The notes beneath the pieces were generated by a model. The model saw nothing but the letters and a program-made list of their open reading frames with translations. It did no database searches and was not told the origin of the DNA. Source: Pirellulales bacterium (lineage in GTDB: Bacteria > Planctomycetota > Planctomycetia > Pirellulales > JAGQOS01). Taken from it: a stretch of DNA of 64,000 nt. The position numbers were made by a program, and so were the translations under genes. Positions 41,288-64,000 of the stretch are shown piece by piece. The stretch is taken from contig JANQPJ010000187.1 of the NCBI GenBank assembly GCA_028289525.1, positions 2,928-66,927 of the forward strand, given 5' to 3'. The stretch's first letter is position 1. The number at the start of each line of letters is the position of its first letter.

Positions 41288-41361
41288 GCACCCCTAGCTC
41301 AATTGGATAGAGCATCGGTCTACGGAACCGAAGGTTAGAGGTTCGAATCCTCTGGGGTGTA
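41288..41361 (+). tRNA. tRNA-Arg (anticodon ACG)
   Basis: Manual cloverleaf fold. Acceptor GCACCCC/GGGGTGT (G1-U72 wobble). D-arm GCTC-AATTGGATA-GAGC. Anticodon arm TCGGT-CTACGGA-ACCGA (ACG at 34-36). Variable loop AGGTT. T-arm AGAGG-TTCGAAT-CCTCT. Discriminator A. No encoded CCA. Confidence 0.9.
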
Positions 41362-41376
41362 CTTCTTTTCTTGATT

Positions 41377-41411
41377 CTCGTACTACAAAACTCTGATTGC
41401 TCGTACTACAA
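41377..41411 (+). promoter_or_regulatory. Two direct 12-bp repeats CTCGTACTACAA between the tRNA and the integrase (candidate arm-type sites)
   Basis: CTCGTACTACAA at 41377-41388 and 41400-41411, with 23-bp periodicity. Confidence 0.45.
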
Positions 41412-41440
41412 TTCGTCGGTCGTGAGTCGACTCTCGAAGG

Positions 41441-61114: not shown

Positions 61115-61409
61115 GGCAGCCTCCCGAAAAAAGGGAGCATCGAACACCCGACTGCCACCGGAAGCCCCGCAACGGGCTGCACGAAACAGACCGCGAGCCG
61201 ACGCTCCCCGTACGGAGAGCGAGCCACGGCACAAGTTTCGTGCTCAAGGGCAAAGAAGCCCTGGAAATGTTGCGGTATTTCCGGTGAACGTGTGCTTAGA
61301 CGCTGATTGAATTGTCTAGGCTTGAATTCTAGATGATGCCTGCTCTTGGTTCAAGCATATTCCCAACAGGAGCGGAAATGAGCATCACGTGTCGGTAGTC
61401 GACGATAAT

Positions 61410-62444
61410 TCAATCAAAGCCGACGGCGGATATTCGGGTAAGTCGCGGAAAACTATGACTAAACGTCAATGTCGAATCGCTCGGAAGCCGCTCAAACTGC
61501 GGTTTTGGCTCAGTTGGATTGGTGACGTTGATAGACAGCCTCGGAGTTGGCATCGCGGCTTCGACGATTTGTAGATACAAGTCGAAGGCGTATTCGGACG
61601 TAAAAAATCGTGGTGCTTGCCGTAGCTGGGCAAGTTCGAGCACAGGGTGTGGACGGTCTACGTTGGGGCCAGCAAGAAGAACAAAACTGAAGCTTGGAGA
61701 TTCGAGGGCGGGACACTCTGCACTTGCATAGCCGAGGCGAAGATGTCGATATTCTTTGACTGGAATCGTAGCATGCCTGTCCGTTCCAAGAGTCACGCCG
61801 AGTGTTGAGTTGGAATAGTTGATTGACCTTATAATGCCTCGCGTTCCGGCTCTAACTCCCAGTTCAAGGTCATCCTTACTGAAAAAAATTTGGTCGCCAA
61901 CATAAGCTGTCACGCGAGATGTAGTCTTGCCAGAGGGTGCAGAGTCTTCGATGAGAATGGAAGACAATTCATTTAACAAGTCAGTCTTTAGCCGTCTCTG
62001 CTGGCAAAGGTGGTTGAGGGTTTCGACATAGCTGCCGGAAGGAGCCACGATAGTTTTCGCTTGGGGAGGGTCGAAAGTTTCCCAAACGGAGACTAGTTTA
62101 CGCATTGCTTGTATGTCGGTGGGAGATGTGAAGGCCCTCCGGCTCTTGTCGCTTAGTACAAGGACGTTACCAACTGTTGCCGTAAGCAAGGCTTTAGTCG
62201 CCTCACGAAGCTGTTTCCCAAAGGTCAGATTACTTGATGGCAGTTTGTATCCAAAAGTGTGACTGCCACCGAGATGCTTTTGAACTTCCCAATCATTGAT
62301 TTCGGGCGAGTTCGAATTCTCTATTATTCTGACTGTTGCCGTTGGTGCAAAGTGAATATTGACATTAGGGCGTGGGGTGCCAAGCGGCACAGAAATGTCG
62401 ATTTGTTGTGGGAGATGTGTGTTCGTGCCGTCCATCTTTGCCAT
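61410..62444 (-). CDS. Hypothetical protein resembling the C-terminal half of RecD/TraA-type helicases (no Walker A seen)
   Basis: 344 aa. YVGDQIFFSKDDLELGVRAGTRGIIRSI resembles the SH3-like insert (GDRV.F..ND..LGV.NG..G.V). YRHLRLGYA resembles the ...LAYA.T.HK.QG region but is degenerate. Weak call. Confidence 0.4.
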   Translation of the reverse strand: MAKMDGTNTHLPQQIDISVPLGTPRPNVNIHFAPTATVRIIENSNSPEINDWEVQKHLGGSHTFGYKLPSSNLTFGKQLREATKALLTATVGNVLVLSDKSRRAFTSPTDIQAMRKLVSVWETFDPPQAKTIVAPSGSYVETLNHLCQQRRLKTDLLNELSSILIEDSAPSGKTTSRVTAYVGDQIFFSKDDLELGVRAGTRGIIRSINYSNSTLGVTLGTDRHATIPVKEYRHLRLGYASAECPALESPSFSFVLLAGPNVDRPHPVLELAQLRQAPRFFTSEYAFDLYLQIVEAAMPTPRLSINVTNPTEPKPQFERLPSDSTLTFSHSFPRLTRISAVGFD

Positions 62445-62575
62445 TAGACAAGAGTAGCACGATGCAGATTCCTAAACAAAAGCGAATCAAATTGGAATTA
62501 GGATGAAACGGGTTGATTCTGTCGGCACCGGAAAAAATTTTCCCTTTCCGAACTTGTTCGCTAATTGCGTACAGC

Positions 62576-64000
62576 CTATTTATCGTCCGGCCAGTTGTAC
62601 TTGTCTTCGTAGTTGGACCGTCGAAAAAGATGTTTGGTGTTTTCCCATTCGTCGTCCGTGAGGTCGTCTTCAACGGTCGACTGTGGCTCAAGCACTTGCT
62701 CAACATCCCCCGATGATTCATCCGATTGCTGAATAGTCTTACCGGCTGACCTTTGAGAAGTTTCGTTGACAGGTGTGGATGCGGCATTGTGCTCATCTCT
62801 TGAGAAGCCAAGGAGTTCGAGTGCAGCAAAAGTGTCTTCTGGAAACACAGTTTTATTGGATGGGAGAGCGTCGAATGGACTACTATCGAAGTACGGCTCT
62901 TGCAGTAGATAAGAAGAATCCAATTTTGGTCGGATTGCGACCTGCCGGACCTGTTTTTGCTCTGGCCTGTCGTTCACCATGGTCGCCCGCGCGTGAAGGT
63001 AAGCTTGCCTGGATTCTTTGGCCGCGTCAGTCGTTGCAAACAATTCAGTACCAGGGATGTGTCCTCTATATGGTGGATGGGAGAGACTCTTGAAATAAGC
63101 CGTTAAACCGGCGGTTTTTGTAGTTGGAGAAAGGTTCTGAATGTCGGCACGCGTGACAATCGGACGTTCCTTTTCGGTGTAACCTTCTGTGACCGAGGTG
63201 CGTTCATCACCTTCCGTCTTGCTGCGTCGTTCGACAAGAATTTTCTGATTGGAAAACACGCGTGATGCCCACTCGGCCGTCTCCGTGCTTGTGTTCGCAA
63301 GAAAAGCAAAATGCCCGCACGTTTCAAGGATGTCCTTCGTCGCAGTTCCATAAGTTTCGGCTAAGGCCGCAATTCCGTGAATACCTAGAACCAGTGTCAC
63401 CCCATAGCTCGCACCCGTGTTAAGCAATCGCGGAAGGTTCTGGATATATCCGAATTGCTGAAGTTCGTCGAGGACGAGTAGGGTGTTCTCTTTGGATTTA
63501 GTTGCAGGGTCAAGAAGTGAGTCAGTGAGTATGCCGAGCAATACACAGTTAAGTTCCTTCATCTGTCCCTGATATGCTTGATTGTTACCCAAAATTACAC
63601 TACCCGTCCCCGACTTCGCCCATTCTCGGAGACTAACCTTTTTGCTGGCATGCGACCATGCGGCGGCAATCGGTTGTAAACGTCGAGTCATGGTACTGAG
63701 ATAAGACAGAAGGTCGTCGGAGCTTTTGTGTTGGCCGTCGATGTCTGTCTTGATAATGCCCTGGCCTTTGGGCGTGGCGGCTAGAATGGCTCGAACATTT
63801 TCTGGACAGCACGCGGCTACGAAGTGTAAAAAATCCCAAGTGTCGCCAGCAAGTGTGTTCAAACACTCAAAAATGGCAATGTATAGTTCACGAACAACAG
63901 CGACACCAAACTGAAATTTCCCTTTCGCCCCACCTGCAACGTCAGGCAAGAAATAGTCTGCGACCGCAGCGCGGGTGGCAGGAGTTTGCACGTCCTTGGC
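62576..64000 (-). CDS. Type IV secretion coupling protein (VirD4/TraD/TraG family), N-terminus beyond the window
   Basis: The frame stays open to nt 64000. Walker B region NTLLVLDELQQFGYIQNLPRLLNTGASYGVTLVLGIHGIAALAETYG. Walker A is not in the window. Confidence 0.8.
   Translation of the reverse strand, partial: AKDVQTPATRAAVADYFLPDVAGGAKGKFQFGVAVVRELYIAIFECLNTLAGDTWDFLHFVAACCPENVRAILAATPKGQGIIKTDIDGQHKSSDDLLSYLSTMTRRLQPIAAAWSHASKKVSLREWAKSGTGSVILGNNQAYQGQMKELNCVLLGILTDSLLDPATKSKENTLLVLDELQQFGYIQNLPRLLNTGASYGVTLVLGIHGIAALAETYGTATKDILETCGHFAFLANTSTETAEWASRVFSNQKILVERRSKTEGDERTSVTEGYTEKERPIVTRADIQNLSPTTKTAGLTAYFKSLSHPPYRGHIPGTELFATTDAAKESRQAYLHARATMVNDRPEQKQVRQVAIRPKLDSSYLLQEPYFDSSPFDALPSNKTVFPEDTFAALELLGFSRDEHNAASTPVNETSQRSAGKTIQQSDESSGDVEQVLEPQSTVEDDLTDDEWENTKHLFRRSNYEDKYNWPDDK

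Follow-up and report, generated by a model that had tools for sequence, protein, structure and literature searches.

The DNA considered here is a 64,000-nucleotide stretch of contig JANQPJ010000187.1 (positions 2,928 to 66,927, forward strand) of the Pirellulales bacterium assembly GCA_028289525.1, referred to below in its entirety as the window. It carries a tRNA-Arg(ACG) gene behind whose 3′ end lies an element with genes for integration, plasmid-like maintenance, anti-restriction and DNA transfer (Table 1). A first-pass annotation, made from the letters alone, had proposed a foreign plasmid-like element of at least 22.6 kb at this tRNA. That proposal is borne out, and the element can now be followed further to the right. 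Through exact-protein matching we located an extension contig in an independent public assembly, Logan SRR20820731_9412 (L001; 29,662 bp, from a k=31 assembly), which starts at window position 41335 in the T-arm of the tRNA, matches the window at 100% identity across 22,666 bp and extends 6,996 bp beyond its end, to window-equivalent position 70996; window-equivalent coordinates are positions >64000, read from this contig. The element is thus at least 29.7 kb long, with its left 22.7 kb inside the window. The same proteins are also present on the NCBI source contig, which is 91,779 bp long.

The element is sharply set off from the chromosome in composition. GC content is 0.563 for positions 1-41287 and 0.505 for 41363-70996, so that the drop first estimated by spot counts at 10-20 points is real but amounts to about 6 points. 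The sliding composition check suggested at the time gives a clear result, as the correlation of tetranucleotide frequencies in 5-kb segments with the chromosomal mean falls from 0.92-0.97 before 41 kb to 0.31-0.59 after it. Two further impressions held up on counting, namely that the chromosomal repeats are missing from the element and that its ribosome-binding sites are strong: 1-40 kb is strewn throughout with repeated 16-mers, 40-64 kb has none, and Shine-Dalgarno-like pentamers occur at 3.8 per kb in the element versus 2.1 per kb in the chromosome, with AAGGAG or GGAGG preceding several element genes.

Table 1 Features of the element and of the chromosome to its left. Positions are those of the window; positions above 64000 are window-equivalent. 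Blank cells, nothing assigned.
Feature	Position	Strand	Evidence or remark
Chromosomal repeat copies, examples	4727-4924, 10642-10729, 28153-28222, 29018-29092, 36031-36064, 38644-38712		
Chromosomal repeats including a 95-nt unit, further copies	11009-11103, 28231-28325, 31536-31630		
tRNA-Arg(ACG), attL	41288-41362	+	ARAGORN; Rfam 66.5 bits
Two exact 12-nt direct repeats, CTCGTACTACAA	41377-41388 and 41400-41411	+	Between tRNA and int, 23 nt apart
Tyrosine integrase, 425 aa	41450-42727	+	phrog_1 integrase E 1.8e-18; AlphaFold2 (AF2) and Foldseek
Weak ParE-like toxin candidate, 118 aa	42742-43098	-	Pfam ParE_toxin E 0.0015, 19.5 bits (cut-off 23)
Small open reading frame (ORF) upstream of weak ParE, possible antitoxin	43103-43426	-	Position; no family match
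Winged-helix-like protein, 292-321 aa	43423-44388	-	PHROG 'replication initiation O-like' E 4e-4 (weak); weak TrmB
Excisionase-family helix-turn-helix (HTH) protein, Xis candidate	45160-45456	+	Pfam HTH_17 E 5.9e-18
ParA partition ATPase	45475-46299	+	Pfam AAA_31 E 2.4e-43, CbiA
186-aa basic protein directly after parA	46292-46852	+	Position; no family match
Three AAAATAGA repeats, 12-13-nt spacing	47212-47243		Directly before strong rep ribosome-binding site
RPA-family replication initiator (Rep), 383 aa	47274-48425	+	Assigned via homologues
Stretch without credible gene, 1.7 kb	48426-50164		Short ORFs without family match; no Rfam match
Conserved backbone protein, 235 aa	50165-50872	+	33% identical to 243-aa protein of locus L131; no family match
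Coiled-coil protein (102 aa) and stand-alone response-regulator receiver (137 aa)	50912-51680	-	Response_reg E 3.8e-11
Cro/C1-type HTH regulator	52129-52335	+	Pfam HTH_3 E 6.2e-6
ArdC-type anti-restriction protein	53429-54994	-	ArdcN E 3.2e-12, Peptidase_M78 E 2.2e-5
165-aa protein	55061-55558	-	Similar to the 95-aa protein at the element's far end
357-aa conserved protein	55590-56663	-	Weak tblastn to 339-/355-aa genes following the coupling protein gene in loci L126/L134
148-164-aa conserved protein, DUF6573-like	57113-57607	+	Weak Pfam
Cargo: 86-aa membrane, 233-aa signal-anchored and 141-aa secreted CarboxypepD_reg-like proteins	57776-59177	+	
ParE toxin	59237-59527	-	Pfam ParE_toxin E 4.2e-16, 59.7 bits
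Antitoxin candidate, upstream and overlapping ParE gene	59520-59852	-	
Cargo: secreted protein with PEP-CTERM-like C-terminal anchor	60323-61234	-	Weak Pfam PEP-CTERM; signal-like hydrophobic segment
344-aa degenerate-looking copy of relaxase C-terminal helicase part	61410-62444	-	NCBIfam TraA relaxase models, positions 506-674, E 7e-12
Type IV coupling protein (T4CP), 848 aa	62576-65122 (window part 62576-64000)	-	C-terminal 471 aa in window
MOBF (TrwC-type) relaxase-helicase, 1132 aa	65136-68534		Pfam TrwC, AAA_30, AAA_19 (precomputed)
oriT candidate, ArdA-NikA intergenic region, 670 bp	68.9-69.4 kb		Six inverted repeats
NikA-like ribbon-helix-helix (RHH) accessory protein, ArdA and 95-aa gene	Beyond window, in 7-kb extension		

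The integration module adjoins the tRNA, which was the only match in an Rfam scan of the whole window. The integrase had been placed about 80 nt behind the tRNA, and its start indeed lies 79-88 nt past it (ATG at 41450, alternative GTG at 41441); its family is now given by PHROG and by fold. Pfam, NCBIfam and PDB sequence searches returned zero matches for the protein. Foldseek places the AF2 model (pLDDT 82) with XerA, lambda Int, Tn1549 Int and Cre, at a probability of 1.00, and from end to end the predicted fold can be aligned to full-length lambda Int, including an N-terminal three-stranded arm-binding domain. Relatives number 429 at 50-66% identity, under names pointing to Planctomycetota. 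In an alignment of 39 of them K281, R355, H386 and Y396 are invariant, Arg-I (R260, present here) is kept in 25 of the 39, and the first histidine of the HxxR box is replaced throughout by an invariant tyrosine, Tyr352 in this protein. The fold and the R-K-H-R-H/W-Y residues of a tyrosine recombinase are all found, save for that first histidine. This replacement and the variable Arg-I, along with the missing Pfam Phage_integrase match, distinguish the protein from lambda-type integrases, and it apparently belongs to a divergent clade largely restricted to Planctomycetota.

Upstream of the integrase genes of two related loci, L131 and L133 (integrases 62% and 66% identical to ours), we find a pair of (T)CGTACTACA(A) repeats 22-23 nt apart that occurs nowhere else in those loci. 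Because the pair is conserved and the integrase model shows a lambda-like N-terminal domain, the CGTACTACAA repeats by the tRNA are likely candidates for arm-type integrase sites or for an int operator. The Xis candidate further along scores 48.3 bits against the TIGR01764 'excisionase family' model, over the 28.8 cut-off.

Genes of the kind that maintain a plasmid follow. ParA has a deviant Walker A motif (KGGVLKTT), and the basic protein encoded directly behind it is, by its position, a candidate for the centromere-binding partner. Rep has 864 relatives; among 45 that were aligned, RPA (PF10134) is matched in 43, TrfA in 19 and Rep3_N in 15. Its best tblastn matches on plasmids are annotated 'replication initiator protein A' and come from planctomycete plasmids (E 1e-22 to 1e-28, 30-32% identity), with RepA matches from Paludisphaera, Aquisphaera, Singulisphaera, SH-PL62, Frigoriglobus and Isosphaera. 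The AAAATAGA units in front of rep are a possible Rep operator or mini-iteron; convincing iterons were found neither near rep nor in the gene-free 1.7 kb behind it, for which a role as oriV is one possibility. Several short hairpins and terminator-like sites were seen in that stretch.

Most of the genes named in the first-pass annotation have kept their assignments. Family matches confirm the excisionase-type HTH protein, ParA, ArdC and the T4CP, and Rep is confirmed through its homologues. One of the two ParE toxin-antitoxin pairs stands, whereas the toxin of the other, nearer to the integrase, falls under the Pfam cut-off and has no NCBIfam match. The proposed RHH partner of ParA has no family match. 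A Flp-like pilin had also been proposed and is not supported, given that the Flp motif (G-x-x-x-x-E-Y) occurs in none of the six frames and no small ORF has a Pfam Flp_Fap match; the membrane and secreted cargo proteins at 57776-59177 are not Flp-like either.

The transfer module straddles the right end of the window. The T4CP matches the Pfam families TrwB_AAD_bind (E 1.2e-25), TraG-D_C and T4SS-DNA_transf and has intact Walker A and B motifs (GMPRSGKT and LLVLDELQ). A Kyte-Doolittle scan finds no transmembrane helix in it, nor in the T4CPs of the related loci L124 and L126; T4CPs without a transmembrane domain (TMD) are a recognised, minor subclass (PMC7431656). The relaxase carries EDYY twice (tyrosine pairs) and the histidine triad HGTSRAGEPQLHVH, and all its plasmid matches are annotated MobF, at about 27-33% identity. 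The origin of transfer (oriT) likely lies in the ArdA-NikA intergenic region. Relaxase and secretion genes had been expected beyond the window, and the next 7 kb do supply the MOBF relaxase, the remainder of the T4CP, the NikA-like protein and ArdA, but neither VirB4 nor any other component of a mating-pair formation (MPF) system; profile scans of all ORFs of the 29.7 kb detect none. To the left of the T4CP gene, the 344-aa protein looks like a diverged version of the C-terminal helicase/SH3-like part of the element's own relaxase. It shares 25-27% identity with the relaxase helicase regions of loci L124, L126 and L134 and has no match to an NTPase-domain family; it could have arisen as a duplicated fragment or act as a regulatory decoy.

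No near-identical copy of the element was found in about 15 billion proteins, in which the closest relaxases are 44-46% identical and the closest integrase 66%, and scans of viral contigs with the integrase and the relaxase returned nothing. The backbone does recur at lower identity. Three relaxase loci (L124, L126 and L134) share a block of accessory protein, TrwC and T4CP, followed by homologues of two conserved proteins of the element, the 357-aa protein, which has no family match, and the DUF6573-like protein (39-41% identical to T4CP-adjacent genes in L124 and L134). Because homologues of both adjoin the T4CP gene in these loci, the two may be unrecognised transfer factors. No MPF gene lies near the relaxase in the 4-10 kb visible on each side in these three loci, and in L126 four small genes and a 1.2-kb gap are all that separates the relaxase from chromosomal-looking genes. 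On contig DRR227401_1547, to which L126 and L131 both belong, relatives of the integrase and of the relaxase lie 61.5 kb apart, and an RPA Rep, an ArdC (53% identical to ours) and a homologue of the 235-aa protein stand beside int. This shared backbone indicates a family of elements rather than a one-off, with more cargo on that contig. We found no direct repeats of at least 12 nt between its integrase side (L131) and its relaxase side (L126), and GC content shows no boundary there either. In L131, a tRNA-Arg(CCG) gene (9795-9869 of that locus) lies beside int in the opposite orientation, so that its 5′ end faces the element, which is unusual for a tRNA-targeting integrase.

The attachment site can be compared more widely, because the tRNA is 100% identical to the tRNA-Arg(ACG) of many Planctomycetota (Pirellulales and Planctomycetales). 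Scanning GTDB genomes for the exact pattern of its last 22 nt gave at least 120 loci, nearly all in Planctomycetota. Among the matches listed, 94 lie in complete tRNAs and about 20 are isolated 3′ fragments; the fragments are 42-50 nt long, start with CTACGGAACCGAAGG in the anticodon loop and occur in other planctomycete genomes. Several share contig and strand with an intact tRNA-Arg, at 7, 25, 32, 40 and 184 kb. Such pairs of fragment and intact tRNA are the classic attL/attR picture and mark tRNA-Arg(ACG) as a recurrent island site across the phylum (loci L011-L121, for example on CP043547.1 at 350,101 and 390,405). Some fragments stand in tandem. Relatives of the element genes near the tRNA-Arg 3′ end were found in none of the 121 occurrences among the matches listed for other planctomycete genomes. 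For the present element, the common core of attL and attR probably lies within about 41320-41364, and attR would be recognised as a 42-50-nt copy of the tRNA end, CTACGGAACCGAAGGTTAGAGGTTCGAATCCTCTGGGGTGTA(CTT).

We consider it probable that the locus is an integrative, plasmid-like, mobilizable element (IME) that spans 29.7 kb or more and sits at the tRNA-Arg(ACG) 3′ end in a Pirellulales/Planctomycetales-like chromosome. The element would be mobilizable, and not conjugative, because no MPF or VirB4 genes occur in the part seen. This part holds what characterizes an IME, that is, an integrase, a relaxase with a T4CP and no MPF genes, the oriT being a candidate. From the set that characterizes ICEs (integrative and conjugative elements), it has the recombinase by the attachment site, the relaxase and the T4CP, and lacks VirB4 and the rest of the MPF genes. 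According to the mechanism that we propose, the lambda-type integrase with its N-terminal arm-binding domain and the Xis-type HTH protein would recombine the element into and out of the tRNA 3′ end, and the circular form could persist as a plasmid by means of the RPA initiator, ParA partition and ParE toxin-antitoxin addiction. The NikA-like protein and the MOBF relaxase-helicase would nick at oriT, the element's own TMD-less T4CP would hand the nucleoprotein to a secretion channel supplied from elsewhere, as for an IME and in the manner of CloDF13, and ArdA together with ArdC might shield the incoming DNA from restriction.

Several points count against this explanation. The right end predicted from the left one did not appear on rightward extension: the tRNA 3′ end does not recur up to 70996, and a search of the 7-kb extension for copies of the attL region or of the arm repeats yielded only a 12/13 match at chance level, within a gene. 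Both GC content and tetranucleotides remain element-like up to 70996. There L001 runs out in DNA that looks non-coding and leaves no ORF open; as much as about 20 kb of the source contig, outside the sequence covered, lies to the right of this position and could hold MPF genes. The same is true of the roughly 41 kb between L126 and L131 that are outside the view of these loci. The closest integrase relatives do not sit at tRNA-Arg(ACG), and L133 has no tRNA. Rep itself is below the Pfam threshold and owes its RPA assignment to its homologues. Finally, whereas the presence, order and intactness of the genes, the foreign composition and the attL junction are observed, excision, replication, transfer, the place of oriT and the need for a helper are inferred. 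In favour of a foreign insertion, the closest relative with a syntenic locus (L130; GFO oxidoreductase 77% and MORN protein 59% identical) carries no such element, but it has no tRNA at the shared GFO/MORN locus either, so that no clean empty site was obtained. The start of the extension contig gives a weak hint of the right end. It lies 30 nt before 41364, inside the tRNA 3′ end, and a break at this point of a k=31 assembly implies a second context for the sequence ending ...GTGTACTT in the SRR20820731 sample; attR would supply such a context, and so would the same tRNA at another locus or in another organism.

The open right end bears most directly on whether the element could be a self-transmissible ICE, as the first-pass annotation had suggested, with its MPF cluster to the right of 70996 and before attR. 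At 70996 the element is unfinished (no attR, no arm-type repeat, GC unchanged) and the source contig could still add the 20 kb mentioned above. Moreover, a T4CP of its own is more usual in conjugative than in mobilizable elements (PMC7431656), and the accessible part of a 2024 preprint (bioRxiv 10.1101/2024.01.22.576637) reports some MPF proteins in 38 planctomycete chromosomes. However, the same part of the preprint gives a complete MPF in 0 of 83 planctomycete chromosomes, the 29.7 kb from int through the relaxase contain no MPF gene, nor do the 10 kb around the relaxase in L124, L126 or L134, and in L126 the relaxase is only four small genes and a 1.2-kb gap away from chromosomal-looking genes. 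Self-transmissibility is thus not supported, and we regard an ICE as unlikely. It is also conceivable, though we find it quite improbable, that this lineage transfers DNA without any canonical type IV secretion channel, and that the TMD-less T4CP and the two conserved proteins encoded beside it in the related loci dock onto a different envelope machine.

The missing attR could also mean that the island is an integrated-plasmid remnant, decaying and immobile, that no longer excises or transfers, and the 1.7-kb gene-free stretch, the degenerate relaxase-helicase fragment and the lack of a near-identical copy in the protein data would suit such a history. Yet the backbone ORFs are all full-length with intact catalytic motifs (integrase K/R/H/Y, T4CP Walker A/B, relaxase Tyr/His, and ParA), and the sharply foreign composition without host repeats argues for recent arrival, which makes a remnant very improbable. 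An assembly artefact, in which a free plasmid was misjoined to the chromosome via an attP identical to the tRNA 3′ end, would account for the full set of plasmid replicon and partition genes and for the break of the k=31 assembly at 41335, which shows this sequence to occur in more than one context in the sample. This break is explained equally well by an identical tRNA in other organisms or by attR. However, the contig that carries the element has two differing ends and is not circular, its right end lacks the tRNA-like sequence expected at an attP junction, and in the source contig the element is joined to the complete tRNA; we give a misjoin hardly any credence. An integrated mobilizable element remains the explanation that we prefer.

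Seen as an IME, the element shares with known ones an integrase and a relaxase, no mating channel and a presumed need for a helper type IV secretion system (T4SS) in transfer (PMC5704250; PMC7431656), although it is much larger than typical IMEs (at least 29.7 kb) and has a full plasmid replicon. Possession of a T4CP without a channel recalls the mobilizable plasmid CloDF13, whose T4CP is MobB (PMC7431656); unlike MobB, in which the TMD is essential, the T4CP of the element has none, and no helper system is known in the host. The NikA-like protein, the VirD4-type ATPase and the two-domain relaxase-helicase, with a presumed oriT by the accessory gene, correspond to TrwA-TrwB-TrwC of plasmid R388 (IncW). 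The gene order differs (accessory-relaxase-T4CP in the element), a Trw-type MPF is absent, and the T4CP shares about 22% identity with TraD across the ATPase domain and has a 300-aa soluble N-terminus. An int-xis pair at a tRNA 3′ end combined with replication, partition and toxin-antitoxin genes is known from ICEclc-type ICEs and from actinomycete ICEs (AICEs) such as pSAM2 (PMC2440964, PMC5587801). ICEs have their own MPF, whereas AICEs use an FtsK-like double-stranded DNA translocase with no relaxase and T4CP; neither applies to the element.

Within the phylum, the closest parallels come from the same 2024 preprint (bioRxiv 10.1101/2024.01.22.576637), as far as its accessible part goes. There, planctomycete plasmids mostly have RPA initiators and type I partition, as the element does, and 29 MOBF relaxases are counted in 21 of 83 planctomycete chromosomes, often with a T4CP. 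The element resembles these catalogued chromosomal loci in having a T4CP beside its MOBF relaxase and no complete MPF. The first-pass annotation had called conjugative machinery poorly characterized in Planctomycetota; this is a fair description, except that chromosomal MOBF and T4CP genes without complete MPF had already been counted. The accessible part of the preprint counts such genes and describes no integrated element, attachment site or integrase with them, whereas here both sets lie behind a tRNA-linked integrase. It gives no known case of conjugation between planctomycetes.

Apart from these modules, the element encodes regulators, cargo and further conserved proteins. The winged-helix-like protein is possibly a regulator or a second initiator-like protein. 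ArdC is built of a 220-aa N-terminal extension, a single-stranded-DNA-binding N domain and an HExxH metalloprotease. The 165-aa and 95-aa proteins both match one small gene of L124. Over the start of the 95-aa gene, the last one of the extension, lies a 29-nt inverted repeat (70388-70548, L001 449-609; 93% complementary, 103-nt spacer), each arm of which has a ATGAAGGC(A/C)GCTAAA start-like sequence.

Interspersed through the chromosome to the left (1-41000) are several families of partly palindromic repeats, among them REP-like palindromes (AAGCCTGAAGCGCAAGCGAAGGAAT and its complement); these families probably explain why chromosomal contigs in the k=31 public assembly are only about 2 kb long. 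A higher copy number of the element had been considered from its long contig compared with a 1.8-kb chromosomal contig. This idea was rejected because at least one end of the chromosomal contig abuts an interspersed repeat, a simpler though unproven explanation. Between the MORN gene and the tRNA, nearly 1 kb (40333-41287) is without a convincing gene; an ORF at 40774-40980 (minus strand) has the look of a transposase fragment by eye and no Pfam match. The best relatives of the MORN-repeat protein beside the tRNA are at most 60% identical and come from Planctomycetales and Pirellulales metagenome-assembled genomes; the host, a planctomycete, has no close relatives among sequenced genomes.

Genetic tools for Planctomycetes are scarce. 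The element, intact and with a defined left boundary, combines int and xis, a native replicon with partition genes and a complete DNA-processing module with an oriT candidate. It could hence be a starting point for integrating or shuttle vectors, and an entry point for testing DNA exchange among planctomycetes, including what a relaxase and a T4CP do without a channel. Judging from the accessible part of the preprint discussed above, chromosomal MOBF relaxases with a T4CP and without a channel were already known in Planctomycetes, to which this locus adds a further, well-preserved example. Should transfer indeed proceed without a canonical channel, this would add a new route of DNA export to a phylum for which the same source reports no conjugation between members. 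Beyond the single element, tRNA-Arg(ACG) emerges as a recurrent insertion site for islands across the phylum.

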